A stretch of 64,000 nucleotides of DNA from Polyangia bacterium (GCA_035549075.1 DASZRT010000032.1:48488-112487), one strand, 5' to 3'. Shown: positions 19,099 to 43,074, counted from the first letter of the stretch. The notes: a model not told the origin generated them from the letters alone. Program-made: numbers and translations.

Positions 19099-20523
19099 CT
19101 AGACTTCGAAGCCGAGTGACTTCAGCTCGGCTTCCAGAGCTTCGAGCTCTTTCCGCACGTTCTCGGGCGCGGGGCCGCCCTTGACGGTGCGCGCGGCGAC
19201 GGCGCGCGCGGGATCGAGCGCCTGCATGACGGCGGGCGTGAGCTTGGGATCGATCGCCGCGAGCGCCTTCGCGTCGAGACTGCGCAGGGATACGCCGCTT
19301 TCGCCAGTCTCCTCTGCGGCGCGCACGAGCTTGCCGACGATCTCGTGCGCCGAGCGGAACGGCAGCCCGCCGCGCACGAGCTCCTCGGCGAGGTCCGTCG
19401 CGCCGAGCGCCGGATCGCCCGCGGCCGCCTGCATGCGCTCGACGTTGAACTCGAGGCTGTCGACGAGGCCGGGCAGCACGGCCAGCACTTGCCGCGCCGT
19501 CTCGACGGCGTCGTAGAACGGCTCCTGCGTCTCCTGCAGATCCTTGTTGTAGGCGAGCGTGAGGCCCTTGCTGATCGTGAGCAGCGCGACGAGATCGCCC
19601 ATCACGCGCGCCGGCTTCGCGCGCAAGAGCTCGGCGATGTCGGGGTTGCGCTTCTGCGGCATGAGCGAGCTGCCCGAGCAGTAGCCCTCGCCGAGGCGCA
19701 CGAAGCCGAACTCCGTCGTCGACCACAGCACGAGCTCTTCGCCGAGGCGAGAGGCGTGCACGCCCATGAGCGCGCACGCGAAGGCGATCTCGGCGGCGAA
19801 GTCGCGGTCGGAGACGGCGTCGAGGCTGTTGCGCGTGGGGCCGCCCTCGAACGCGAGGGCGGCGGCCGTGTTGGCGCGATCGATCGGCAGGCCCGTCGAC
19901 GCGAGCGCGCCCGAGCCGAGCGGTGACTCGCCGGCGCGCTTGGCCGCGTCGAGCAGGCGCCCGCGATCGCGGCGCAGCATCTCGGCGTAGGCGAGCAGGT
20001 GGTGGCCCAGCGTCACGACCTGCGCGCGCTGTAGGTGCGTGTAGCCCGGCAGCAGCGTGCCCGCGTGCTCGCGCGCGCGCCGCGCGAGCGCGAGGCGCGT
20101 GCGGTCGATGCCCGCGACGAGATCGACGCACGAGCGCAGCGCGTAGAGCCGCAGGTCGGTCGCGACCTGATCGTTGCGGCTGCGCGCCGTGTGAAGGCGC
20201 CGCGCCGGATCGCCGACGAGCTCGGTGAGCCTCGACTCGACGTTCATGTGCACGTCCTCGAGCGCAGCGTCCATCTTGCGCTCGCCGCGCTCGAACTCTC
20301 CCGCGACCTGGTCGAGGCCGGCGACGATCGCGTCGGCGTCGGCCGCGCTGATGAGGCCGACCGACGCGAGCATGCGCGCGTGCGCTTGGCTGCCGCGAAC
20401 GTCGTCGCGCAGCAAGCGACGGTCGAAGTCGATCGACGCGTTGAGCGCCGCCGCCGCCGGATCCATGGCGCCCGAGAACCGCGCGCCGCGTCCTCCCGCG
20501 ACAGCTTTCTCCTGCTTCGTCAT
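19099..20523 (-). CDS. argH: argininosuccinate lyase
   Basis: Fumarase/aspartase-family signatures ([21 protein letters not shown]) and the overall ArgH architecture. Confidence 0.9.
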
Positions 20524-20683
20524 GCTGCGCTTTTACCGTTGCGTCTCGCAGAGCGCGACACATTTCGGACGCGTAACTTCGTCACGATCGTCGCGCGCAA
20601 ACGTGGCGCGTGCGCGACCTGCAAGCTACTCTGAAATCGAGGGCACCGTGACCGGCTGGCCCACAAAAGGAGGACAAGAACGC

Positions 20684-20767
20684 ATGAGTAAACGCACCCA
20701 AACGCACGGTACGGATTCTCACCGCACTCTCTCCCGCTTCGGCGCCAAGGAGCCCGGGCGAAGCTGA
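20684..20767 (+). CDS. candidate small ORF (27 aa) with consensus RBS
   Basis: AAAGGAGG sits 8 nt upstream of an ATG (MSKRTQTHGTDSHRTLSRFGAKEPGRS). It lies in a low-GC 514-bp intergenic region with mixed codon bias. Confidence 0.3.
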   Translation: MSKRTQTHGTDSHRTLSRFGAKEPGRS

Positions 20768-20903
20768 GCCTCCAGTTCGACTGACACAGGGTTTTCGAGC
20801 TCGTAGCACCCGAAACCGGTCCCGCGACGAAAGCTCGCGTCAAAGGCCATAAATCGGGCGGCGCCTCGAGGCGCTAGCTCTCGACCAGCCCAATAGCGGT
20901 CCC

Positions 20904-20947
20904 GAAACGCGCCGAGGAGAATGTTCTCCCGGCGCGTTTCCTTTTAG
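20904..20947 (+). terminator. Rho-independent terminator-like hairpin
   Basis: gaaacgcgccgAggagaa-tgt-ttctcccggcgcgtttc: a 17-bp stem with one bulge and a 3-nt loop, followed by cttttag. Confidence 0.55.
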
Positions 20948-21037
20948 AGCAAGTGAGCGCAGCGCGGCTTTGCCGCGCGGAGCGAAGGGGGTTCGGGGGC
21001 ACCCGAGCGAAGCGAGCGGTACCCCCGACGACTACGA

Positions 21038-21811
21038 CTACGATGCGCGCTTGACGCGGAGGCCGTTGAGCTCGTCGAGGAACTTCGCCGTCGTCTCGAT
21101 GCTGTTCTCGAGCGACTCGATGACCAGGTTCAGCAGGCCGTCGTTCTCGAAGCGCAGCACCTCGTAGTAGCGCTGACGATCGATCGAGTGGATGACCGCC
21201 GGCAAATAGCCGTGGCGAATCAGGATGTAGTTCATCAGCAGGCGCGCCAGCTTCCCCGAGTTCTTCGTCCACGGGTAGATGTTGAGCAGCCGGAAGTGCG
21301 CCTTCGTCGCGCGCGTGATCGGGTGCAGCTCGTTGAACTCGTCCGAGTGCATCCACTCGTCCAGCTTCTTCATCTTCGCCGTGATCTTCTCGGGCGGCGC
21401 GATCTCGTGATAGTAGAGCCGGTGCAAGGGGTTCTCCTTGCGGAACGGGAAGCCCTTCGCCGCCGCCTCGGGCGTGATGAGCCCGTAGAGCTTCTTGATG
21501 AGCTCGAGGTCGATGGGCGTCGGCTTCTTGCCCGAGTTGGCGTCGCGCACGAAGTCGACGGCCAGCTTGTGGTTCCGAACCTCCTCGTACATCGGGATCA
21601 GCGTGACATCACTGATGATGCGCTGATCGATCGCGGCCTTGAGCTCGGAGTACGAGAGGACGACGCCCTCGAGCGCGTTGTCGTGGAAGATCCACGAGAC
21701 ATCGAGACGGTCCTGATACGTTTTGAGGATGCTCGCCGGGAACGAATTCTGCTTCCCACGCAAACTCTCCATCTTGGCGTCGAGCTCGAAGAACTTCGCG
21801 TCCATCCCCAT
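21038..21811 (-). CDS. Fic-family protein with degenerate catalytic motif
   Basis: AHFRLLNIYPWTKNSGKLARLLMNYILI aligns to the Fic core a-H-x-x-f-x-x-IHPFxDGNGRxxRLLmNxlL. The catalytic His is Tyr here, and D, N and R of DGNGR are K, S and K. Confidence 0.7.
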   Translation of the reverse strand: MGMDAKFFELDAKMESLRGKQNSFPASILKTYQDRLDVSWIFHDNALEGVVLSYSELKAAIDQRIISDVTLIPMYEEVRNHKLAVDFVRDANSGKKPTPIDLELIKKLYGLITPEAAAKGFPFRKENPLHRLYYHEIAPPEKITAKMKKLDEWMHSDEFNELHPITRATKAHFRLLNIYPWTKNSGKLARLLMNYILIRHGYLPAVIHSIDRQRYYEVLRFENDGLLNLVIESLENSIETTAKFLDELNGLRVKRAS

Positions 21812-22112
21812 CTCCTAAGTTCCTTCCTTTTGAACGTGGCGAGTTCCGGGATTAACGAGGGGCCGGTTCAGTTACCAGCAGCGGGAAATCGTATTTCGCG
21901 AGAACCCTTTGGTCAAGCGGGGTTAGGAGACTTTTTCCCCAGGTTACAGAGTCTGGCCGACGTGTCTTGTTGCTTCCAAGTTTCGGGATGTCAGGGCCCT
22001 CACCACGTAGATCGCGCTTTTTGCAGGGCCAAAGCACCCGCACCAGCTGGCGGACTTAGATTCGTAGAGCCGATATACATAAAATCATTAGAAAATTCGC
22101 CTTGTTCAAAAC

Positions 22113-22140
22113 TTGACTCGCCGCCCTCCTGGGCAAGAAT
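22113..22140 (+). promoter_or_regulatory. candidate sigma70-type promoter of the dcw cluster
   Basis: TTGACT (22113-22118), a 16-nt spacer, then AAGAAT (22135-22140). It ends about 8 nt before the rsmH ATG and is preceded by an AT-rich stretch. Confidence 0.3.
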
Positions 22141-22148
22141 GACCGGAC

Positions 22149-23102
22149 ATGCGGGCCGAGCGCCGTATCGCCTCCGGTCCCGGTGCCCCAGACGCATCGG
22201 TTGACGGAATTCGGGCGCTGCACGAACCGGTGCTGCTGCAAGAGGTGCTCACCTACCTCGAACCGCGGTCTGGCGGCCTTTATTGCGACGGGACCGTCGG
22301 CATGGGCGGACACGCGCGCGCGATCCTGGAACGGGCCGCGCCCGACGGGCGGCTCGTCGGCATCGATCGCGATCGCGACGCGCTCGCCGAGGCGAAGGCG
22401 ACGCTCGAGCCGTTCGGCGATCGCGTCACGCTGGTGCACGCGCCGTTCGCGCGCGCGCGCGCCGTGCTCGAAGAGCTGGGCGTCGTGCCGGTCGACGGGT
22501 TCCTCGTCGACCTCGGCGTGTCGTCGCCGCAGCTCGACCGCGCGGAGCGCGGCTTCTCGTTCCGCGGCGCGGGTCCGCTCGACATGCGCATGGATCAGAG
22601 CGGCGGCGAGACGCTCGCAGAGCTGCTGCGACGCGTGGACGAGGGCGAGCTCGAGCACATCATCCGCGAGTACGGCGAAGAGCGGTACGCGCGCCGCATC
22701 GCCGCGGCGATCATGCGCGAGCGCGACGCGCTCGACTCGACGGCGGCGCTCGCGGCCGTCGTCGCGCGCGCGATGCCGGCGCACGAGCGGCACAAAAACC
22801 CGGCGACGCGCACGTTCCAGGCGTTGCGCATCGCCGTCAACGACGAGCTCGGCCAGCTCGCGTCGTTCCTCGACGGCGTGACCGACTGCCTCAAGCCGGG
22901 CGGCCGGCTGTGCGTCATCGCGTTTCACTCGCTCGAGGACCGCATCGTCAAGCAGCGGCTGCGGCGGCTCGCGGGCAAAGACGGCAGCGGGCCGGCGCGC
23001 CTGCGCCTGCTCAACAAGCACGTCGTCGTCGCCGGCGAAGAAGAGCGCCTGCGCAACCCGCGCGCGCGATCGGCGAAGCTGCGCGCCGTGGAGAAGCTCT
23101 GA
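22149..23102 (+). CDS. rsmH: 16S rRNA (cytosine1402-N4)-methyltransferase
   Basis: HEPVLLQEVL...DGTVGMGGHARAIL...VDLGVSSPQLD are MraW motifs. First gene of the dcw cluster. Confidence 0.9.
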   Translation: MRAERRIASGPGAPDASVDGIRALHEPVLLQEVLTYLEPRSGGLYCDGTVGMGGHARAILERAAPDGRLVGIDRDRDALAEAKATLEPFGDRVTLVHAPFARARAVLEELGVVPVDGFLVDLGVSSPQLDRAERGFSFRGAGPLDMRMDQSGGETLAELLRRVDEGELEHIIREYGEERYARRIAAAIMRERDALDSTAALAAVVARAMPAHERHKNPATRTFQALRIAVNDELGQLASFLDGVTDCLKPGGRLCVIAFHSLEDRIVKQRLRRLAGKDGSGPARLRLLNKHVVVAGEEERLRNPRARSAKLRAVEKL

Positions 23103-23103
23103 C

Positions 23104-23598
23104 GTGAGCTCTCCCACGGCGTCTTCGATCGTCGAGACCGACGCGCGCCACCGGCGCGGCATCGGCGTCGGCGCGTTCCTGCTCGCGATCGCGACGGTGG
23201 GCGCGGTCGCGCACGTCGGCGTGCGCGGGCAGGGCATCGAGGTCGCCTACGCGCTGGGCCGCGAGAAGCAGATCAACACGAAGCTCGAAGAGGAGCGGCG
23301 CCGCCTCAACATCGAGATCGGCATGCTCAAGGATCCCGTGCGCGTCGTGAGCTTCGCGCGCGACAAGCTCAAGATGGGCCCGCCCGCGCCGGCCGACATC
23401 GTGCGCCTCGTGCCGGGGCAGGTGCTGGGCGCGCCGCCCGCCGTGACCGCGCCGGCCGCGCCGAAGCGCGCGCCGCGCAGGCCGGCCGCCGCGAGGCCCG
23501 TGGTCGCGAAGCCCGTCAAGGTCGAGGCGAAGGCCGCGCCCGCATCGGAAGATGCGCCGGCCGCCGACGAGGCGCCGCGAACGGACGGTGACGAGTGA
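23104..23598 (+). CDS. ftsL: cell division protein FtsL-like
   Basis: Position between rsmH and ftsI. A single TM (GVGAFLLAIATVGAV) followed by a coiled coil, with a Pro/Ala-rich C-terminus. GTG start. Confidence 0.6.
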   Translation: MSSPTASSIVETDARHRRGIGVGAFLLAIATVGAVAHVGVRGQGIEVAYALGREKQINTKLEEERRRLNIEIGMLKDPVRVVSFARDKLKMGPPAPADIVRLVPGQVLGAPPAVTAPAAPKRAPRRPAAARPVVAKPVKVEAKAAPASEDAPAADEAPRTDGDE

Positions 23599-25676
23599 CG
23601 TTCCCCGGGCGGTGGACGCGCGTCCGCATCGTCGCCTTCGGCGCGATCCTGGGCGGCCTCTTCTTCGCCGTCGCGAAGCGCTCGTACAACCTGCAGGTGC
23701 TCGAGGCCGATCGCCTGCGCGGCATGGCCGAGGAGCAGTACCTGCGCGAGGTCGAGCTGCCGCCGCGGCGCGGGCGCATCCTCGATCGCAACGGCGCCGA
23801 GCTGGCGTCGACGGCCGACGTCGACTCGATCTACTGCAACCCGCGGCGCCTGCCCGATCCGCGCGAGGCGTCGCGCCTGCTCGCGAAGGTGCTCGATCTC
23901 GATCGCCACGAGCTCGAGAAGAAGCTCTCGCAGCGACGCTTCTTCGCGTGGGTCAAGCGCAAGGTCACGCCCGACGAGGCCGCGGCCGTGAAGTCGCTGG
24001 ATCTGCCGGGCGTCGCCTTCGTGCGCGAGCCGCGCCGCTTCTACCCGAACCGCGCGCTCGCGGCGACGGTCATGGGCCTCGCGGGCTCCGACGGGCGCGG
24101 CCTCGACGGCGTCGAGCTCGCCTACGACAAGGCGCTGCGCGGGACGACGTCGTCGGTCGTCGGCGTGCGCGACGCGCTCGGGCGCGAGCTGGCCGTCGAC
24201 GGCTTGCCCGACGCGCCCACGGGCGCGGGCGCCGACGTCGTGCTCTCGATCGATCGCTACCTCACCTTCGTCACCGAGCGCGCGATCGCCGACGGCCAGG
24301 CGCGCACGCACGCGAAGGACGTCGTCGCCGTCGTCATGGATCCGGGCACGGGCGAGATCCTCGCGATGGCGTCGGTGCCGACGTTCAACCCCAACGATCC
24401 CGGCGAGGCGGCGAACGGCGCGCGCGATCGCGCCATCACCGACTCGTACGAGCCGGGCTCGACGATGAAGACCTTCACGCTGGCGTCGGCGCTCGACGCG
24501 GGCGTCATCCGCGCCGACGATCGCTTCGACTGCCTGCAGGGCAAGATGATGGTCGGCAAGTACTCGATCCACGACACGCACCCGCACGGCGTGCTCACGG
24601 CGGCCGAGGTGTTCAAGTTCTCGAGCAACATCGGCGCGACGAAGATCGCGCGGCGGCTCGGGCGCGAGGGGCTCGCCGACGCGCTCGATCGCTTCGGCTT
24701 CGGGCACCCGACGGGCGTGGGCCTGCCGGGCGAGCGCTCGGGCATCATCCGCCCCGTCGACAAGTGGGGCGACATCGGCTTCGCCAACGTGTCGTTCGGG
24801 CAGGGCCTCACGGTGACGCCGCTGCAGATGGTGAGCGGCGTGAGCGCCATCGCCGCGGGCGGCGTGTACCGCGCGCCGCGCGTCGTGTCGCGCGTCGTGG
24901 CCGCCGACGGCAGCGTCGAGACGCCGACGGTCACGCCCGATCGCCGCGTGATGTCCGAGCACGCGGCGCGCACGATGCTGCAGATCATGCGCGGCGTGAC
25001 CGAGGAGGGCGGCACGGCCAAGCAGGCGGCCATCGACGGTTACGTCGTCGGCGGCAAGACGGGCACGGCGCAGAAGGTCGCCAACGGCCACTACGACCCG
25101 GACAAGTGGGTGTCGTCGTTCGTGGGCGTCGTGCCGCTCGAGGCGCCGCGCCTCGCGATCATCGTCGTCGTCGACGAGCCGCAGGGCGGTCACCTGGGCG
25201 GCGCCGTCGCGGCGCCCATCTTCAAGGACATCGCCGAGCAAGCGCTGCGCTACCTGCACGTCCCGCCGTCGCCCGACGCCGCGGTCGCGGCGCGCGTGCC
25301 GAAGGGCGGGCGCGCGCCGCTGGCCGATGCCGACGACGCGCCGGCCGCGGAAGGTTCTCCGACGGATTTGCCCGTGTACGCCGACGCCGACGGGCCCGGC
25401 GACGATCCGGCGATGGCCGAGCAGTGGAACGCCGTCGCGGGCGCCGAGGGCGGCGCTTCGGACCACGCGAGCGCCGCGCCGCCGCCGACGGCGATCCCGA
25501 GCTTCGCGGGCATGACGCTCGGCGAGGCGGTGCGCGCCGCGCGCCGCAGCGGCGTCGAGCTGGCCTTCGACGACGTGACGGGCACGGCGGGCGGCGTCGT
25601 CTTGTCGCAGACGCCGGGGCCAGGGCCTTCGTCGCGCGGGACGCTGTGCCGCGTGACGCTGGGACACGTCGAATGA
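23595..25676 (+). CDS. ftsI: peptidoglycan D,D-transpeptidase (class B PBP)
   Basis: N-terminal TM and dimerisation domain, transpeptidase motifs STMKT, SSN and KTGTA, and a C-terminal PASTA-like domain. Confidence 0.9.
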   Translation: MTFPGRWTRVRIVAFGAILGGLFFAVAKRSYNLQVLEADRLRGMAEEQYLREVELPPRRGRILDRNGAELASTADVDSIYCNPRRLPDPREASRLLAKVLDLDRHELEKKLSQRRFFAWVKRKVTPDEAAAVKSLDLPGVAFVREPRRFYPNRALAATVMGLAGSDGRGLDGVELAYDKALRGTTSSVVGVRDALGRELAVDGLPDAPTGAGADVVLSIDRYLTFVTERAIADGQARTHAKDVVAVVMDPGTGEILAMASVPTFNPNDPGEAANGARDRAITDSYEPGSTMKTFTLASALDAGVIRADDRFDCLQGKMMVGKYSIHDTHPHGVLTAAEVFKFSSNIGATKIARRLGREGLADALDRFGFGHPTGVGLPGERSGIIRPVDKWGDIGFANVSFGQGLTVTPLQMVSGVSAIAAGGVYRAPRVVSRVVAADGSVETPTVTPDRRVMSEHAARTMLQIMRGVTEEGGTAKQAAIDGYVVGGKTGTAQKVANGHYDPDKWVSSFVGVVPLEAPRLAIIVVVDEPQGGHLGGAVAAPIFKDIAEQALRYLHVPPSPDAAVAARVPKGGRAPLADADDAPAAEGSPTDLPVYADADGPGDDPAMAEQWNAVAGAEGGASDHASAAPPPTAIPSFAGMTLGEAVRAARRSGVELAFDDVTGTAGGVVLSQTPGPGPSSRGTLCRVTLGHVE

Positions 25677-33709: not shown

Positions 33710-36217
33710 TCAGTACATGCGGAAGCGGTAGCCGAGCGAGAAGCGCAGGCCCCAGTTGCCGTCGACGAGGGCGTGCGGGTTGTCGTGCTGCGACGACGCG
33801 ACCTGTGTGCAGCGGTTGTTGTTGGCGCAGTCGTCGAAGGGATAGAAACTCGCGACGAGGTCGAAGGTGAGGCGCTGGAAGAACGCCGCTCCGAAGATCA
33901 GCTCGGGGCCTTCGCGTTGCAGCAAGAGGCCGTCGAACGTGCTGAGCCTATCGATGGCCCAACCGCCGCCGAAGTGCAGCTGCACCAGAGACTGAAACGT
34001 ATTGCCCGCGCAGCGCTGCAGCTGCAGCTCGTCGGTGAGGTGCACCGCGCCTCCGTACGTGAAGGCGAGCGAGCGCCCTTCGCCGACCGGGTCGTAGTCC
34101 TGGGTCGCGTGCACGCCCGTGATGCGCAGCTCGACATCGGCCATGAGGTGCAGCTCGCGCGGCATGCGGTCCCACGGCACGCGATGCGCGGCGCTGAACG
34201 AGAGGCCACGATCACTCACGAACGCCAGGTCGAGCGTCATCGTCGGTGGCTGGTAGACGTAGGCGAAGTTGAGCGCCGCCTTGGCGAGATCGCCGACGAC
34301 GAGGCGGCCAGGGACGTCGAGCAACGGCTGCGCCGTCGTCGTGCGGTGCACGATGACCTGGAGGTCGTCGCGGATGGCGAGATCGACGGTGCCGGCGGTC
34401 GCGGGCAAGTGGTGGTACTTGAGGTCGCGGTACACGTAGGGCGCGGGCGCGTCGTTGGTGGTCGGGCCGGGCGCCTCGCCCAGCGCGCGCAGGAAAGTTT
34501 CCTGCTCGCCGGTGATCGTCGACGACAGCGACGGCGCTTGCTTCTCGCGCCAGGCGAGCGTCGCTTCGCTCGCGTAGGCGAGCGCCTCGACGTTGCGGCG
34601 GAAGGCGTCGCCGTCGGGTAGTCCCGTCCCCACGGCGGCGCACGCGGCCGGCGCGCCCGTGCCCGGCGCGCCGAAGCGCCGCGCGCGGTAGGCCATGAGG
34701 CAGTCGAGCTCGGGCGCGTTCTCGAAGGCGGGACCTGCGCCCGTCGCGCGCATCACCTGGAACGCGAGCGACGTCTGCGCGAGGTTTTGCCAGGCGTCGA
34801 CCATGCCCGCGTAGAAGTCGTAGACGCGAAAGTCGCCCTCGGCGAAGGCGAGGAACTCCATGAGGTACGCGCCGGCGACGGGCTCTTGCCGTGGCGGGCT
34901 CTCGAGCTCTTGCAGCAAGCCCGGCTCGCGTTCGAGCACGTCGAGCAGCGCGACCTCGAACGAAGTGCTCATGAAGTCACCCGCGAAGGTGCTCCACGTG
35001 TCGAGGAACGTTCCGCGCGACGGTTCCTCGGCGCGCTCGTTGTCCTTCGGGTCGATCGGGCGCGACACGGTGACGTCCGGATCCTGCACGATGTAGCGGG
35101 TGGGTGTCTTTGGATCGCGACCTTCGGCCAACAAGCGCCAGCGTCGCATTTCGACGGCGAGGCCCACGGGCCGATCGTCGAAGACGCCGCCATCCGTGTA
35201 CCAGCCGTCGTCGTGCGGGGCCCGCGGGTCGTCGGTGAGCAGGTGCAACCAACGCGGCGGGAACGCAAACGAGAACGCCGACGAGGCTGCGAGCGTCTTC
35301 GTGACCGAATCGACGTCGTACGATTCGAGTCGGCGCAGCTCGAGCTCGAGCAGATCGTGGCTCGGATCGTTGGGCGGCGGCTCGAGGGGCCGCAGCGTCG
35401 GCGCGGCCTCGCCGCTCGCCTTCGTGAGCGAGAACGTCAGCTTCTCCGTCTGCACGGGCAACACGAGGCCCACGCCGTCGAGCGGTTGGATCTGCCGGGC
35501 GTGCACGCGCGTCGTCGTGAGGCCCATATCGATCCGGCACGCGTCGCTCCACTTCGTCTTCTTCCACTCTCGGCTGAGGTAGTCGGCCGAGGCGTCGATG
35601 GGCTTCGTCGAGAGCAGCCCATCGCGTTTGACGCCGTCGGCGTCGATGAGCTCCTTCTCGCCCACGGGGACCCAGACGTTCCAGAACAAGCTCTCGCGCG
35701 GGCGTGGGTTGGGCGCCTGGCAGGCCGTCATCGCCGAGACGAAGGCGTTGATCGAGCCCGACGAGGCGCCCGTGACGAGCGCGAGCGGCGCCGTGCCCTC
35801 GGCGGGTTTCCAGTCGCGCTTGGTCGCGGCGGCGCGCGCGCCGGCGCGCGGCTCGAGCGCGCGCAGCTCGCTGAAGGCCGCCAGCAGGTAATAGAGGTAG
35901 CCGCCCTGGTAGTTGCCGAGGCTCACGGCGCCCGAGATGCTGAGCGCGAGCGGGCGCGACAGCTCCTCGTCGAGCAGCGCGATCTCGTCGGGGCTCGCGG
36001 CGGCGTCGTCGCCGCCGAGCCACGCCGCGAGGTGATGCACCGTCCGACCGTCCCAAGGCGGCGCATCTTTGCCGCGGATGACGGTGCCCCGCGCGGCGTG
36101 GTGATCGGCGATGGCGGCCAGCGCGGCCCGGTCGTCGGGCGCGTGAGGCGCCGCGCGCGCCGTGCCGGAGAGTCCGACCATCAGCCCGAAGAGTGCGACG
36201 CGGCCTCGTCTCGACAC
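33710..36217 (-). CDS. patatin-like phospholipase with C-terminal outer-membrane beta-barrel-like domain (PlpD/type Vd-like candidate)
   Basis: Signal peptide, a Gly-rich oxyanion region (LALSISGAVSLGNYQGG), a GxSxG nucleophile (VTGASSGSINAF) and the DGG aspartate (WYTDGGVFDD). The C-terminus ends ...LRFSLGYRFRMY, an aromatic-terminated OMP-like strand. Confidence 0.55.
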   Translation of the reverse strand: MSRRGRVALFGLMVGLSGTARAAPHAPDDRAALAAIADHHAARGTVIRGKDAPPWDGRTVHHLAAWLGGDDAAASPDEIALLDEELSRPLALSISGAVSLGNYQGGYLYYLLAAFSELRALEPRAGARAAATKRDWKPAEGTAPLALVTGASSGSINAFVSAMTACQAPNPRPRESLFWNVWVPVGEKELIDADGVKRDGLLSTKPIDASADYLSREWKKTKWSDACRIDMGLTTTRVHARQIQPLDGVGLVLPVQTEKLTFSLTKASGEAAPTLRPLEPPPNDPSHDLLELELRRLESYDVDSVTKTLAASSAFSFAFPPRWLHLLTDDPRAPHDDGWYTDGGVFDDRPVGLAVEMRRWRLLAEGRDPKTPTRYIVQDPDVTVSRPIDPKDNERAEEPSRGTFLDTWSTFAGDFMSTSFEVALLDVLEREPGLLQELESPPRQEPVAGAYLMEFLAFAEGDFRVYDFYAGMVDAWQNLAQTSLAFQVMRATGAGPAFENAPELDCLMAYRARRFGAPGTGAPAACAAVGTGLPDGDAFRRNVEALAYASEATLAWREKQAPSLSSTITGEQETFLRALGEAPGPTTNDAPAPYVYRDLKYHHLPATAGTVDLAIRDDLQVIVHRTTTAQPLLDVPGRLVVGDLAKAALNFAYVYQPPTMTLDLAFVSDRGLSFSAAHRVPWDRMPRELHLMADVELRITGVHATQDYDPVGEGRSLAFTYGGAVHLTDELQLQRCAGNTFQSLVQLHFGGGWAIDRLSTFDGLLLQREGPELIFGAAFFQRLTFDLVASFYPFDDCANNNRCTQVASSQHDNPHALVDGNWGLRFSLGYRFRMY

Positions 36218-36274
36218 GCGCCGACCGTAGCGCGGGCCGCGCGCGCCTCAAAGAAAGGACCTTCGGCGGGATGC

Positions 36275-36907
36275 TTACGGCGCCCGCCCGGCGGCCCGCG
36301 CGCCGACGAGCGCGAGATCGCGCGCGAGCAGCTCGCGCAGCTCGCGCCGGCGCTCGGGCGTGGGCGCGCGCAGCGCCGCCGACGGGTGAATCGTCACGAC
36401 GACGTCGGGCGCGGGCGCGCCGAGCTCACGCGCGAGCGGAAACACCTGGCCGCGATCGCGCAGGACGCGCACGCTCGGGCCCAGCAGCGAGCCGGCCGCC
36501 GTCGCGCCGAGCGCGGCGACGACGCGCGGCCGCACGAGCCGGAGCTCGTCGTCGAGCCACTGACGGCAGGCCGCCGCCTCGCGCGCGCTCGGCTTCTCGT
36601 GCAGGCGGCGCTTGCCGCGCTCGACGAACTTGAAGTGCTTCACGGCGTTGGTGACGTAAACGCTCGCGCGCGGCAGGCCCGCCAGGGCGAGCGCCTCGTC
36701 GAGCAGCGCGCCCGCCGGCCCCACGAACGGGTGGCCGCGGCGATCCTCTTCGTCGCCGGGTTGCTCACCCACGAGCATGACGGCCGCTCGGGGCGGGCCC
36801 TCGCCGAACACGGCCTGCGTCGCCGCCGCGTACAGCGGGCAAGCGCGGCACGTGGCGCAGGCCGCGGCCGCTTGTGCGAGCGATGCGGAGGGCGCGCCCG
36901 CCGGCAT
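36275..36907 (-). CDS. family 4 uracil-DNA glycosylase (4Fe-4S type)
   Basis: CxxC...C, GEGP, VMLVGEQPGxxED, PFVGPAGxLLD, VYVTNAVKH, and HPSA. Start placed at internal Met MPAGAP. The longer ORF has an Arg-rich N-terminal artefact. Confidence 0.8.
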   Translation of the reverse strand: MPAGAPSASLAQAAAACATCRACPLYAAATQAVFGEGPPRAAVMLVGEQPGDEEDRRGHPFVGPAGALLDEALALAGLPRASVYVTNAVKHFKFVERGKRRLHEKPSAREAAACRQWLDDELRLVRPRVVAALGATAAGSLLGPSVRVLRDRGQVFPLARELGAPAPDVVVTIHPSAALRAPTPERRRELRELLARDLALVGARAAGRAP

Positions 36908-36915
36908 CACGGCCT

Positions 36916-38256
36916 CTAGGGCGGCGCGGCCTCGATGCGCCAGATGCAGTTGCCGACGTCGTCGCTCACGAGCAGGCCGCCGTCGCCGTCGACGGCGATG
37001 CCCACGGGGCGGCCCCACGCCTCGCCGTCGGCGTTCGCGAAGCCCGTCATGAAGTCCTCGTAGCCGCCGAGCGCCCGGCCTTTGTCATCGACGGGAATGC
37101 GCACGACCTCGTAGCCGGCCAGGGCGCTGCGGTTCCACGAGCCGTGCTGGGCCGCGAAGATGTTGCCGTTGTACGCGGCCGGGAATTGCTCGCCGTCGTA
37201 GAAGACGAGCTGCATCGAGGCCGCGTGCGGCTCGACCAGCACGTCGGGCACGATGACCTTCGACGCGAGCTCGGCGTGCTTGCCGCCGAGGCGCGGGTCG
37301 GCGTGGCCGCCGATGTAGAAGTACGGCCAGCCGTAGAAGCCGCCGTCGACGACGCGCGTGACGTAGTCGGGCACGAGCTCGTCGCCCAGCTCGTCGCGCT
37401 CGTTGACCGACGCCCACAGCGCGCCGTCGCGCGGCGAGATCGCGAGGCCGACGGCGTTGCGGATGCCCGACGCGTAGACGCGGCGATCTTTGCCGTCATT
37501 GTTGCCATCGATGGTCATCTCGAGGATGTCGGCGCGCTCTTTCTCGCCGGGGTGGTCGTCGGGATCGTCCACATTCGAAAATGACCCGACGGACACGTAG
37601 AGCTTCTTGCCGTCGGGCGAGATCGCGAGGTCGCGCGTCCAGTGGCCGCCGCCGCGGAGCAGGCCGCCGCCCGGCAGGTCGGCGATCTTCGTGGGCGCGC
37701 CGCGCGCCTTGAGATCGCCGTAGTAGTAGGGGAAGCGGAGCACGGCGTCGGTGTCGCCGACGTAGAGCGCCTGCGGCCGCTTGCCCGGCGGCCAGAACGC
37801 GAGGCCGAACGGCTTCTCGAGATCGGAGGCGAACGTCTCGATCTGCGCGGCGCGGCCGTCCTTGCCGACGCCGCGCAAGACGCGCACGCGGCCCGACCAG
37901 CTCTCGCTCACGAAGACGTCGGCGTTGGGGGCGACGCGCAGCGCGCGCGGGCGCTCGAGGCCCTCGGCGTAGAGCGAGACGCGGAAGCCGCGCGGCACCT
38001 GCGGCCACGCTTTTTCGGGGCGCGGCACGACGTGCGGCGAGCGATCCGCCGAGCGCGTCGCAAACGGCTTCGGCAGCGGATCGGCCGCGATCTTGTGCGC
38101 CGCGCCGGGCGTTTGCGCCGACGCGTCGTTCGCGCGCTGCCGCGCCGAGCTCTTGAGCTTCGCGGCGGCGAGGCCCCCGGCGAGCGCGAGCACGCCGACG
38201 GCGACGGTGACGACGCGCGAGGAGATCCGCCCGGCCATGATCTTGAAGCTACTCAC
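36916..38256 (-). CDS. PQQ-dependent sugar dehydrogenase (soluble aldose/sorbosone dehydrogenase family)
   Basis: N-terminal TM/signal, then a beta-propeller with motifs typical of the sorbosone dehydrogenase / YliI family. GTG start. Confidence 0.75.
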   Translation of the reverse strand: MSSFKIMAGRISSRVVTVAVGVLALAGGLAAAKLKSSARQRANDASAQTPGAAHKIAADPLPKPFATRSADRSPHVVPRPEKAWPQVPRGFRVSLYAEGLERPRALRVAPNADVFVSESWSGRVRVLRGVGKDGRAAQIETFASDLEKPFGLAFWPPGKRPQALYVGDTDAVLRFPYYYGDLKARGAPTKIADLPGGGLLRGGGHWTRDLAISPDGKKLYVSVGSFSNVDDPDDHPGEKERADILEMTIDGNNDGKDRRVYASGIRNAVGLAISPRDGALWASVNERDELGDELVPDYVTRVVDGGFYGWPYFYIGGHADPRLGGKHAELASKVIVPDVLVEPHAASMQLVFYDGEQFPAAYNGNIFAAQHGSWNRSALAGYEVVRIPVDDKGRALGGYEDFMTGFANADGEAWGRPVGIAVDGDGGLLVSDDVGNCIWRIEAAPP

Positions 38257-39733: not shown

Positions 39734-40666
39734 ATGGGCGAGCCGCTGCCTCAACGCACGCGTGTGACCGCGGTCGAGGTGCCGCGGCGCGGGTTGTTGC
39801 GCCGGCGGTCGAACCGGCGCGTGCTCGTCGTGAAGCGCTCGCCGCTCGTGTGGTTCGGCGAGGTGGCCAAGGCGGTCGCGTCGCGGCTCGCCGTGCTCGG
39901 CAAGCTCGTCGTCGTGTGCGCGTTGGTCGCGGGCGCGGTCTACGGCGGGCGCGCGCTCGTGCGCCACGTCGTCGCGTCGCCGCGCTTCGACCTGCGCGAG
40001 ATCCGCGCCGACGCGACCCTGCACATCTCGCACGACGACGTCGTCGAGCTGTCGGGCCTCTCGCCGGGCGACCACCTGCTGGCGATCGACACCGACGCCG
40101 TCGCGGCGCGCGTCGCGGCGCACCCGTGGGTCGCGAGCGTGCGCGTGCGGCGCCAGCTGCCGTCGGCGCTCGCGATCGACGTCGTCGAGCGGCGCGCGGC
40201 GGCGACGGCGCTGCTCGGCACGCTGTACCTGCTCGACGAGACGGGCCGCCCGTTCAAGCGCGCGACGCTCGAGGAGGCCGACGGCCTACCCATCGTCACG
40301 GGCCTCTCGCGCGAGCAGTACACGCTGGCGCGCAACGCGAGCGAGGCCGCCTTCCGCGAGGGCCTGAGCCTCCTCGCCGCGTACCGCGCCGTCGATTCTC
40401 TGTCCGCCGCGCACGGTCCGTCGAGCCGCCCCGCGCTCTCGGAGATTCACATCGATCCGCGCGCGGGCTTCTCGCTCGTGTTCTACGACGGCGGCGGCGA
40501 AGTCTTGCTCGGCCGCGGCGATTGGGCCGGCAAGCTCGCGCGCCTCGACGAGATCCTGGGCGCGCTCGGCCCGCGCGGCGCGAGCGCGCTGCGGGCCGTG
40601 CACCTCGACGGCCCCACGCACGATCGAGTGACGGTGCGCCTCGCGGCGACGCCCTCACCCGGTTAG
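39734..40666 (+). CDS. ftsQ: cell division protein FtsQ/DivIB
   Basis: Single TM followed by a POTRA domain (FDLREIRADATLHISHDDVVELSGLSPGDHLLAIDTDAVAARVAAHPWVASVRV). Sits immediately after murC. Confidence 0.75.
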   Translation: MGEPLPQRTRVTAVEVPRRGLLRRRSNRRVLVVKRSPLVWFGEVAKAVASRLAVLGKLVVVCALVAGAVYGGRALVRHVVASPRFDLREIRADATLHISHDDVVELSGLSPGDHLLAIDTDAVAARVAAHPWVASVRVRRQLPSALAIDVVERRAAATALLGTLYLLDETGRPFKRATLEEADGLPIVTGLSREQYTLARNASEAAFREGLSLLAAYRAVDSLSAAHGPSSRPALSEIHIDPRAGFSLVFYDGGGEVLLGRGDWAGKLARLDEILGALGPRGASALRAVHLDGPTHDRVTVRLAATPSPG

Positions 40667-42435
40667 TGGTTGCCGCGGAAGACGCGCGCGCCGCTGCCGC
40701 CCACGAGGAAGTCGAGGTCGGCGCCGCGGTCGGCCTGCTGCACGTGATCGAGGTAGAGCTTGAGGTACCCGCGTGGCTCGTGTGGTGCGGGCGGCGTCCA
40801 GCGCGCGCGGCGGCGCGCGAGCTCGTCGTCGGCGACGTCGAGGTGCAACCTGCGCGCTTCGACGTCGAGCTCGATGACGTCGCCCGTCTCGACGAGCGCG
40901 AGCGGCCCGCCCGCCGCTGACTCCGGCGCCACCTGCACGACGACCGTCCCCGCGGCCGTGCCGCTCATGCGCGCGTCGGAGAGGCGCACCATGTCCGTCA
41001 CGCCGCGCGCGAGCAGCTTCTTCGGCAGCGAGAGCAGCCCCACCTCCGGAAAGCCCGGGTAGCCGCGCGGCCCGCAGTTCTTGAGCACCAGCACCGATTC
41101 GGGCCCGACCTCGAGCGCGGGATCGTCGATGCGCCGATCGTAGTCGTCGATGTCGGCGAACACGACGGCGGGCCCGCGGTGCTTCATGAGCGCGGGCGTC
41201 GCCGCCGACGGCTTGATGAGCGCGCCACCCGGCGCGAGGTTGCCCATGAGCACGGCGATCCCGCCGCGCGGCTTGAAGGGCGCGTCGGCCGTGAAGATGA
41301 CGTCGCGGTTCCAGCAGGGCGCGTCGGCGATCTCCTCGCCGAGCGTCCGCCCCGTGACCGTGAGCGCGCCGCCGTGCAGGCGCGGCGCGAGCTCGCGCAG
41401 CAGCGCCGCGAGGCCGCCCGCGTAGAAGAAGTCCTCCATGAGGTGCTTCCCCGAAGGCACGAGGTTCGCGAGGCACGGCACGTCGCGGCCCAGCCGATCC
41501 CAGTCGTCGAGCGACAGCGGCACGCCGAGGCGCCCCGCGATCGCCAGCAGGTGCACGACGGCGTTGGTCGAGCCGCCGAGGCCCGCGTTGGTGACGATCG
41601 CGTTCTCGAACGCCGCGCGCGTCAGGATGTGCGAGAGGCGCACGTCGTCCTTGACGAGCCCGACGATGCGGCGGCCCGCGAGGTGCGCCAGCGTGCTCCG
41701 CCGCGCGTCGGGCGCCGGGATCGCCGCGTTGCCCGGCAGCGCGACGCCCATCGCCTCGCACAGCGCCGCCATGGTCGACGCCGTGCCCATTGTCATGCAC
41801 GAGCCCGCCGAGCGCGCCATGCACGCCTCGGCGTCGCGCGCGTCCGCAAGGGTGATCTCGCCCGTCTTCAGCTGATCGCCCAGCTTCCACAGCATCGTGC
41901 CCGAGCCGACGTCGCGGCCGCGCCACTTGCCGTTGAGCATGGGCCCGCCCGACACGAAGATCGCCGGCAGATCGCAGCTGGCCGCGCCCATGAGCAGCGC
42001 GGGCGTCGTCTTGTCGCAGCCGCCCAGCAAGATGACGCCGTCGATCGGGTTCGCGCGGATCGACTCCTCGACGTCCATGCTCGCGAGGTTGCGGAACAGC
42101 ATCGTCGACGGGCGCATGAGGCTCTCGCCCAGGCTCATCACGGGGAACTCGAGCGGGAAGCCGCCCGCCTCCCACACGCCGCGCTTCACGCGCTCGGCGA
42201 GCGCGCGCAGGTGGCCGTTGCACGGCGTGAGCTCCGACCACGTGTTGCAGATGCCGATGACGGGCCGGCCGTCGAACACGTCGTCGGGCACGCCCTGGTT
42301 CTTCAGCCAGCTGCGGTGAAGGATGCCCTCGCGCCCCGGGGCGTCGAACCACGCCGCGCTCCGCAGCCGGCGCCTGCCGCCCTTTGAGTCGTCCGCCACG
42401 GCGGCAGTGTATCGAAGCCGCCGCGCGGTTGGCAT
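40663..42435 (-). CDS. IlvD/EDD-family dehydratase (sugar-acid dehydratase-like)
   Basis: GGCDKTTPALLMGAASCDLPAIFVSGGPM and SAGSCMTMGTASTM Fe-S cluster motifs. Start taken at the first ATG, MPTARRL; a GTG alternative lies at 42399. Confidence 0.75.
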   Translation of the reverse strand: MPTARRLRYTAAVADDSKGGRRRLRSAAWFDAPGREGILHRSWLKNQGVPDDVFDGRPVIGICNTWSELTPCNGHLRALAERVKRGVWEAGGFPLEFPVMSLGESLMRPSTMLFRNLASMDVEESIRANPIDGVILLGGCDKTTPALLMGAASCDLPAIFVSGGPMLNGKWRGRDVGSGTMLWKLGDQLKTGEITLADARDAEACMARSAGSCMTMGTASTMAALCEAMGVALPGNAAIPAPDARRSTLAHLAGRRIVGLVKDDVRLSHILTRAAFENAIVTNAGLGGSTNAVVHLLAIAGRLGVPLSLDDWDRLGRDVPCLANLVPSGKHLMEDFFYAGGLAALLRELAPRLHGGALTVTGRTLGEEIADAPCWNRDVIFTADAPFKPRGGIAVLMGNLAPGGALIKPSAATPALMKHRGPAVVFADIDDYDRRIDDPALEVGPESVLVLKNCGPRGYPGFPEVGLLSLPKKLLARGVTDMVRLSDARMSGTAAGTVVVQVAPESAAGGPLALVETGDVIELDVEARRLHLDVADDELARRRARWTPPAPHEPRGYLKLYLDHVQQADRGADLDFLVGGSGARVFRGNH

Positions 42436-42465
42436 CGGCGTTGCTGGTTCGACGCCCCGCGCACC

Positions 42466-43074
42466 ATGGACCTCCCTCCTTCCCCGTTCGGCGGCCCCGT
42501 TCCCGTGGTTCGGCCGCTCGACCCTGATCGCAATGTCCCGATCGCGTCGCGCGCGCCAACCCGCATCGTCCGCGAGCCCGACGTCCTCGCGCGCGTGACG
42601 CTCGCTTTCTTCACCGTCGCCGTCGCCGCGTGGATCGTCCTCTCGTGGACGGGCTACCGCGGCGACTACGTCGGCGCGCAGCAGGCGTGGCACCGCGGCG
42701 CGCACAACCTCGTCGAGATCACGCTCGTGCGCGAGGACGAGACGAAGCTCGCCTGCGCGTCCGGCGTGTCGCTGGGCGCGCTCGCCTGCGCGTTCGACGG
42801 CGACCGCCACCCCCGCGCCGTCGCGCCGCCCGACCCGGACTTGCTGCGGCCGTACTCGACGACGGGCGGCGACGTGATCGTGGGGGCGGGCTTGTGGAGT
42901 GCGGCGACGTTGCGGCGCCCGCTGCCGGCCGAGCGCTTCACCGTCGTGTGCGACTTCGAGGTCGTCGACCTCGTGCGCTCGCTGTCCCTTCGTTGGGCGC
43001 CGGACGCGGCGTTCGACGCCGCGACGAAGAGCCTGCCCGTGGGACGCCTCACCGGCTGCACGGTCCCGCCGTGA
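42466..43074 (+). CDS. hypothetical membrane-anchored protein
   Basis: 202 aa, high GC3, one TM (LAFFTVAVAAWIVLSW). Its stop overlaps the start of the downstream GT-C gene (GTGA). Confidence 0.55.
   Translation: MDLPPSPFGGPVPVVRPLDPDRNVPIASRAPTRIVREPDVLARVTLAFFTVAVAAWIVLSWTGYRGDYVGAQQAWHRGAHNLVEITLVREDETKLACASGVSLGALACAFDGDRHPRAVAPPDPDLLRPYSTTGGDVIVGAGLWSAATLRRPLPAERFTVVCDFEVVDLVRSLSLRWAPDAAFDAATKSLPVGRLTGCTVPP

Follow-up and report, generated by a model that had tools for sequence, protein, structure and literature searches.

Gene order at the head of the dcw cluster

We analysed a 64-kb stretch of DNA (the window) with a GC content of 70% (0.701 overall), in which a dcw cluster runs in the order rsmH, ftsL-like, ftsI, murE, murF, mraY, murD, murG, with ftsL and ftsI each abutting or overlapping the gene before it. 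Ahead of rsmH, across an intergenic gap, lie a gene encoding a Fic-domain protein and, beyond it, argH (Table 1). Proteins identical to RsmH and to the adjacent Fic-family protein occur in metagenome-assembled genomes (MAGs) labelled Polyangia bacterium, and identical DNA is also found on contig CAZPSI010000157.1 of GCA_964589105.1. The order argH(−), fic-like gene (−), gap, rsmH(+) recurred in every relative found, down to 70% RsmH identity, the fic-like gene adjoining rsmH in all loci seen. In relatives of 70–85% RsmH identity the fic–rsmH gap measures 245–432 bp and mraZ is present in none. Further downstream, the cluster is broken after murG by two minus-strand genes, encoding a patatin-like phospholipase and a glucose/sorbosone-dehydrogenase-like protein (GSDH), which are followed by murC and ftsQ and then by ilvD on the minus strand; ftsA and ftsZ were not found after ftsQ in the stretch examined in the window.

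Table 1. Coordinates of genes and sequence features, counted from the first nucleotide of the window
Feature	Position	Strand	Remarks
argH	19099..20523	-	
argH–fic gap			514 bp
Fic-domain gene	21038..21811	-	Pfam Fic 3.7e-12; conserved start 21805
Pseudo-Fic gene, from conserved start	21038..21805	-	255 aa from conserved second ATG
Predicted fic 5'UTR	21806..21881	-	about 75 nt; SD AGGAG 21816..21812
P_fic (predicted)	21888..21916	-	-35 TTGACC 21916..21911, 17-nt spacer, -10 TACGAT 21893..21888
Conserved block	21901..21926	+	AGAACCCTTTGGTCAAGCGGGGTTAG; P_fic -35, part of spacer, 10 nt upstream
Variable spacer between the two promoters	21927..22060		poor alignment, variable length
A/T-rich upstream element of P_rsmH	22072..22099	+	GATATACATAAAATCATTAGAAAATTCG; about -75 to -49
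P_rsmH (predicted)	22108..22140	+	AAAAC, -35 TTGACT 22113..22118, 16-nt G+C-rich spacer, -10 AAGAAT 22135..22140
Gap from -10 to start	22141..22148	+	8 nt, GACCGGAC; then ATG 22149..22151
rsmH	22149..23102	+	317 aa, first dcw gene; Pfam MraW 1.9e-104
Conserved nucleotide block	22200..22214	+	GTTGACGGAATTCGG; codons 18-22 VDGIR, 51 nt after ATG (+52..+66)
ftsL-like ORF	23104..23598		FtsL match weak, 2.4e-6
ftsI	23595..25676		
dcw interruption region	33710..38256 and 40663..42810		

For comparison, 28 metagenome loci were retrieved by a contig scan with the conserved block on the fic side of the gap (21901..21926), that is, independently of the rsmH promoter, and the promoter statistics given below refer to the 27 unique loci of this set with enough downstream DNA. 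Alignment of the gaps of the relatives found through RsmH showed conservation in three places: the block at the fic promoter, the A/T-rich block and the string AAAACTTGAC...A-N-AAT...ATG that leads into rsmH.

The argH–fic gap holds a strongly conserved independent unit of its own (20640..20945, plus strand). It comprises a −10-like TAnnnT, a conserved 5'UTR with the Shine–Dalgarno sequence (SD) AAGGAGG, a 27-codon basic ORF (20684..20767; MSKRTQTHGTDSHRTLSRFGAKEPGRS) and a conserved RNA of about 180 nt that looks structured and ends in a hairpin and a TTTCCTTTT terminator. Twelve variants of the peptide are 26–27 aa long and follow the pattern MSKRTHxNGTLSLRHLHRxGxKExDR, and RNAalifold returned 35 pairs for the unit, 8 of them with compensatory changes. 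In locus L083, where an OmpA-family gene has been inserted, the unit stays beside argH. It gave no Rfam or NCBIfam match, and its features may point to a new small-protein gene or a dual-function RNA.

The low-GC gap and the predicted promoter of the fic-like gene

A preliminary description of the locus had singled out an AT-rich region upstream of rsmH, and composition bears this out. At 0.528, the GC content of 21812..22148 is matched or undercut by just 0.09% of all 337-bp windows of the 64 kb, and the A/T tract at 22073..22099 falls inside the 60 bp with the least GC anywhere in the window (0.32; 22054..22113). The same description found no ORF with good codon bias in the region, and we likewise found GC3 to be 0.65 or less in every frame, versus approximately 0.9–0.97 in the flanking genes; the small ORFs that are present gave no Pfam match and are not kept in relatives. 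The non-coding character of the whole 337 bp assigned to the gap thus stands, whereas its left border has to be moved. The first ATG of the fic-like gene (21811) is ACG in most relatives and the second (21805) has GGAG 6 nt upstream, SD and start being kept as AGGAGA(T/C)GGGGATG in 26 of the 28 related loci. Taking this second ATG as the start of the minus-strand gene sets the gap at 21806..22148 (343 bp).

The left third of the region, described earlier as non-coding, does not code for protein but contains what that description had missed, the predicted promoter and 5'UTR of the divergent gene. In relatives the −10 hexamer of P_fic reads TACGAT, TAGGAT, TATAGT or TATCAT, always TAnnnT, with a spacer of 16 or 17 nt, and we predict P_fic to be a promoter of the sigma-70 (housekeeping) type. 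Its transcript would begin near 21881, a position placed about 7 nt past the −10. The 26-nt block that includes the −35 is near-invariant in the 8 loci found through RsmH, and neither it nor the A/T-rich element on the other side of the gap has a further copy in the window. Because it is conserved beyond what a promoter needs, the block may be an operator for a regulator.

Between the two promoters, alignment of relatives and folding revealed no conserved sequence, ORF or structure. This spacer is much shorter in L087 and L088, and in L107 and L117 a 12-bp tandem repeat (unit about CCACAGCTTTGC) is expanded mid-gap, with more copies in L117; the expansion indicates that the stretch between the promoters is free to vary. 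An 18-nt inverted repeat (21828–21845 / 22094–22111) was treated as chance because relatives do not keep it. The low GC is simply that of non-coding, promoter-rich DNA within a 70% GC genome, and by its conservation the gap reads as a divergent (back-to-back) promoter region.

A degenerate Fic protein encoded on the opposite strand

The product of the divergent gene scores above the cut-off for the Fic domain (PF02661) and matches human FICD structures over its full length (PDB 6i7h, E 5.5e-22, in a sequence-based comparison). Its active-site motif is nevertheless IYPWTKNSGKLAR versus the canonical HPFx[D/E]GNGRxxR, with no variation among close homologues. The clade form of the degenerate motif is YPWT[K/R]NSGK[V/L]AR, in which His has become Tyr, and that of the wider family is [Y/F]P[F/W/Y]xxx[S/T/N]Gxxx[R], usually with Lys or Arg after Gly. 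In every homologue inspected, 9 close and 26 distant, Tyr or Phe replaces the catalytic His, and the degenerate motif is kept across the wider family (at least 120 representatives at E≤1e-30). An inhibitory-helix-like NALEG is also retained. Because the catalytic His and most of the motif are replaced, AMPylation by the known mechanism is unlikely for this protein, which we refer to as pseudo-Fic. Some family members carry a long Lys/Ala-rich N-terminal extension.

Two observations would fit a horizontally acquired insertion, comprising the AT-rich gap and the fic-like gene, that displaced mraZ and whose low GC marks it as foreign DNA: the GC content of 20500..22150 is only 0.55–0.66, below that of the surroundings, and Fic/Doc genes are often mobile. 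The gene itself argues against this. Its GC3 of 0.93 reflects native codon usage, as in host genes, its low total GC arising from codon positions 1 and 2, and its product is more conserved than RsmH (82% versus 70% identity in L088). The invariant gene order in all relatives found and the sharing of the degenerate motif by a broad family point the same way. We therefore consider the insertion highly improbable and reject the fic-like gene as recent foreign DNA on its GC3, fixed synteny and conservation; any insertion would be ancient and fixed.

A conserved predicted promoter precedes rsmH

A candidate promoter, TTGACT-N16-AAGAAT at 22113..22140, had been put forward for the dcw cluster. It is present, and its architecture is kept in the 27 unique loci. 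Compared with TTGACA/TATAAT it scores 9/12, just four of the six positions of AAGAAT agreeing with TATAAT, and a 1-kb scan returned 2 promoter-like sites, the other being P_fic, versus 0.1 ± 0.4 in shuffles. Across the 27 loci the −35 region AAAACTTGAC is invariant, the −35 hexamer itself being TTGACA in 21 and TTGACT in 6, with TTGAC common to all. The spacer is 16 nt long in every locus while its G+C-rich sequence varies. The −10 reads AAGAAT (16 loci), AACAAT (5), AAAAAT (3) or GACAAT (3), with no change at A2, A4, A5 or T6 and free variation at position 3. Judged by alignment, this combination of fixed hexamers and spacing with a drifting spacer is the pattern of a functional sigma-70-type promoter. 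Additional internal or upstream promoters are possible.

The A/T tract that had been noticed just upstream of this promoter (22073..22099) turned out to be a conserved upstream element. In relatives it reads TATCTAATTGAAATTATG... or GATCGCATTGCAATCATT..., is partly palindromic around ATTG(C/A)AAT and aligns at a constant distance from the −35 in all 27 unique loci. It is probably an UP-like element and/or a site for an activator.

It is also conceivable that dcw transcription begins at a more distant upstream site and yields a long regulatory leader, or an sRNA within about 21927..22100; the TTGACT...AAGAAT match would then be incidental or a protein-binding site. Such an arrangement would resemble UpsM of Rhodobacter sphaeroides, a 268-nt dcw leader within which a small ORF has also been discussed (PMC5089854), and it draws on the length of the gap (337–343 bp) and on the conserved A/T-rich element that the gap holds. 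However, the middle of the gap is unconserved and variable in length, and its central 191 nt fold no better than shuffled sequences on either strand (z +1.19 and +0.84). Rfam gave no match in the gap at gathering thresholds and chance-level matches only at E≤10, no tRNA or tmRNA was found, and a scan returned no terminator-like site. Fixed hexamers and spacing around a free spacer sequence are, moreover, what a promoter leaves behind. We therefore regard a long leader as very unlikely. The earlier suggestion of an sRNA in 21850..22100 finds no support either: that span consists of the fic promoter and 5'UTR followed by unconserved spacer, with no fold or Rfam signal, and an sRNA or small ORF in the gap was rejected for want of Rfam or Pfam matches, conservation and folding above the shuffle level.

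A probable rsmH start codon locked to the predicted promoter

The ATG at 22149, from which rsmH was previously taken to begin, is the sole ATG, GTG or TTG between an in-frame TGA at 22140 and the conserved HEPVLL, which supports that assignment. It begins 9 nt past the last base of the −10, leaving an 8-nt gap, GACCGGAC, with neither an SD nor any GGAGG-like run. Throughout the 27 unique loci the promoter-proximal start codon is ATG with no trace of an SD, and the gap between −10 and ATG is 7–16 nt with a mode of 9 (9 nt in 12 loci, 10 in 5 and 8 in 4; three loci have 13–16 nt). Neighbouring genes use strong SDs, AGGAG for the fic-like gene and AAGGAGG for the 27-codon ORF in the argH–fic gap.

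In 23 of the 27 loci the promoter-proximal ATG opens a frame that continues directly into RsmH, with 4 to 24 residues before the conserved HxPVL. Only 4 codons stand before the conserved His in six loci and 5 in one, so the rsmH start is unambiguous in those seven. Since the ATG stays within 7–16 nt of the −10 while the N-terminal peptide is variable, the position of the start follows the promoter rather than the protein, as would be expected for a leaderless or very-short-leader mRNA.

The usual distance from −10 to +1 is 6–7 nt. The predicted transcription start site (TSS) accordingly falls at 22147–22149, at or 1–2 nt before the rsmH ATG, which would give a leader of 0–2 nt in the window and of 2–3 nt in relatives with the modal gap; we therefore speak, with caution, of a ‘near-leaderless’ transcript. 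Given a conserved promoter signature and an SD-less ATG locked to the −10, the best reading is that the rsmH transcript is leaderless or has a leader of 0–4 nt, in agreement with the almost leaderless transcript anticipated from the window alone. A literature search found no paper on leaderless transcripts in Myxococcus.

An upstream frame fused to RsmH

Codons 1–24 of rsmH in the window are a lineage-specific N-terminal extension, homologous to a 29-codon uORF of the closest relatives. In these four loci (L083, L084, L086 and L101) the promoter-proximal ATG opens the uORF, whose TGA overlaps the in-frame GTG of rsmH (GTGA), a stop/start overlap that is typical of translational coupling. All four uORFs have 29 codons despite strong divergence of their peptide sequences. 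The upstream frame has been fused in frame to rsmH in the window, giving the 24-residue extension, and independently in RsmH P0041.

Within the extension lies a short block (22200..22214) whose opening 12 nt, GTTGACGGAATT, do not differ between the window and the four uORF-bearing loci even though they include A/T-ending codons, which are rare in this genome. This identity suggests constraint at the nucleotide level. The encoded VDGIR occupies the same codons (18–22) in P0041. A second promoter at the TTGACG inside the block was considered and rejected, there being no −10-like hexamer 16–18 nt downstream in the five sequences.

An identical RsmH has been annotated in two ways, as 317 aa from ATG 22149 and as 290 aa from GTG 22230 (the NCBI MAG annotation), and for many RsmH proteins of the subclade gene callers use yet another start, the GTG within GTGA. 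Because the closest relatives start elsewhere and NCBI calls GTG 22230, the start at 22149 is a probable RsmH N-terminus in this genome. The promoter-proximal ATG might mainly serve a short leaderless frame, with RsmH starting downstream (e.g. at GTG 22230) and the first 24–27 codons forming a leader that is translated but does not belong to the enzyme. Consistent with this are the GTGA-coupled uORFs and the subclade and NCBI start calls, a GC3 of only about 0.67 in codons 1–24, and the nucleotide-level conservation of 22200..22214. Three observations weigh against it: in the window no stop separates ATG 22149 from the enzyme, and ribosomes starting there would make the long form; initiation at GTG 22230 (V28) would drop the conserved His of HxPVL; and P0041 provides a second in-frame fusion. 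We judge a downstream start unlikely, and it would alter the N-terminus only, leaving the promoter and the near-leaderless reading as they are.

mraZ is absent from this dcw head

That no MraZ-like ORF lies upstream of rsmH, as the preliminary description stated, is evident from the gene found there, the minus-strand Fic-domain gene. We also built an MraZ HMM from the products of 34 mraZ genes that directly precede rsmH in distant genomes, and used it to search six-frame ORFs of the 64-kb window and of the related loci L081 and L083–L089. Nothing matched (best E 0.71), whereas the positive controls gave E values of 1e-43 to 5e-58. MraZ boxes were sought as a triple 4-mer repeat with a period of 9–12 bp on both strands. 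None was present on either strand of 21812..22148, and the same test recovered such an array in 51 of 67 MraZ-containing control loci, the 4-mer being GTGG in 40. The GTGG arrays of the controls agree with the published GTGG[A/T]G repeats, of which Bacillus subtilis has three, with 4-nt spacers (bioRxiv 10.1101/2022.02.09.479790).

Accounts of the dcw operon usually place MraZ and its binding repeats at the head as a general feature (e.g. PMC12957436). Among distant rsmH loci, defined as relatives of 55% RsmH identity or less among the matches listed, 13 of 80 lack MraZ in the sequence examined, 12 of the 13 with a full 6 kb upstream; they belong to Nitrospira/Nitrospirales, an Acidobacteriota MAG, several Clostridia and Prosthecobacter. 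Absence of mraZ from the dcw head is therefore not rare. Within the 64-kb window and the related loci of up to 14 kb mraZ is missing throughout, which makes its local absence a conserved trait of the Polyangia clade. A literature search pairing mraZ with Myxococcota (whole word) found no paper, and a paper on Sinorhizobium meliloti TSSs names mraZ solely for a CtrA motif.

Discussion

The observed sequence features, their pattern of conservation and the local absence of both MraZ and MraZ boxes are best explained, with good probability in our estimation, by an mraZ-less dcw cluster expressed from a divergent promoter region, in which a near-leaderless rsmH is paired with the promoter of a pseudo-Fic gene. 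On the minus strand, TTGACC-17-TACGAT within the conserved 26-nt block would drive the pseudo-Fic gene by way of an SD-containing leader of some 75 nt. On the plus strand, the A/T-rich element and AAAAC-TTGACT, the 16-nt spacer and AAGAAT would direct dcw transcription, with a transcript that starts so close to ATG 22149 that no room is left for an SD. The rsmH mRNA would then be translated as a leaderless or near-leaderless message.

In the canonical mra/dcw head, as in Escherichia coli, B. subtilis and Mycoplasma, Pmra is followed by MraZ-binding repeats, mraZ and rsmH. The locus described here shares with it the order rsmH-ftsL-ftsI-murE-murF-mraY-murD...murG and a single strong-looking promoter ahead of the cluster, but it has neither mraZ nor the three-fold GTGG/TGGG boxes with their period of about 10 bp, and an SD-less rsmH comes first. 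rsmH is likewise the first dcw gene in mraZ-less clusters elsewhere (Nitrospira etc.); a conserved divergent pseudo-Fic partner, in contrast, was seen only in the Polyangia clade among the loci compared. UpsM of R. sphaeroides is comparable in being a non-standard, lineage-specific 5' organisation of dcw, yet it stands at the other end of the range: its leader is long, structured and equipped with an intrinsic terminator, and mraZ is present. Here, by contrast, we predict essentially no leader and found neither a terminator nor mraZ.

Leaderless mRNAs are common in Actinobacteria, Deinococcus and archaea. The rsmH start resembles them in having a −10-like hexamer a few nucleotides before the ATG, no SD and an ATG in every relative. 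Compared with a strictly leaderless mRNA, however, the modal gap between the −10 and the ATG is somewhat larger than the expected 6–7 nt, and the TSS is a predicted one. The divergent protein shares with the FICD/HYPE-type Fic AMP-transferases the Fic fold, a FICD-like layout and NALEG, and differs from them in the loss of the catalytic His and of most of HPFx[D/E]GNGRxxR.

A more far-reaching possibility is that MraZ control of dcw has been replaced in this clade by a different, partly translational device. Its parts would be the near-leaderless start or, in the closest relatives, the GTGA-coupled 29-codon uORF; the nucleotide element at +52..+66; and the co-located, divergent and catalytically dead Fic protein as partner or regulator. 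RsmH modifies C1402 of 16S rRNA at the P site and is reported to affect start-codon selection. If the device exists, unusual initiation could even form an autoregulatory loop via RsmH. We think a replacement of this kind quite unlikely, and translational control through the leaderless start or uORF, like a functional link with pseudo-Fic, is speculative.

As regards the probable arrangement, the near-leaderless rsmH paired with the pseudo-Fic promoter, it is no new kind of element but a lineage-specific variant of known components: sigma-70 promoters, leaderless or short-leader mRNAs, mraZ-less dcw clusters and coupling by stop/start overlap are each already known singly. The locus also flags an annotation problem, as three RsmH N-termini have been assigned among near-identical sequences, and it provides testable promoter and start-site predictions for organisms without genetics. 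What it reveals is a whole uncultured myxobacterial clade that lacks the MraZ module at the head of dcw and has a fixed alternative architecture instead, consisting of a conserved promoter with an SD-less, promoter-locked rsmH start, a coupled uORF in some members and a divergent pseudo-Fic gene.
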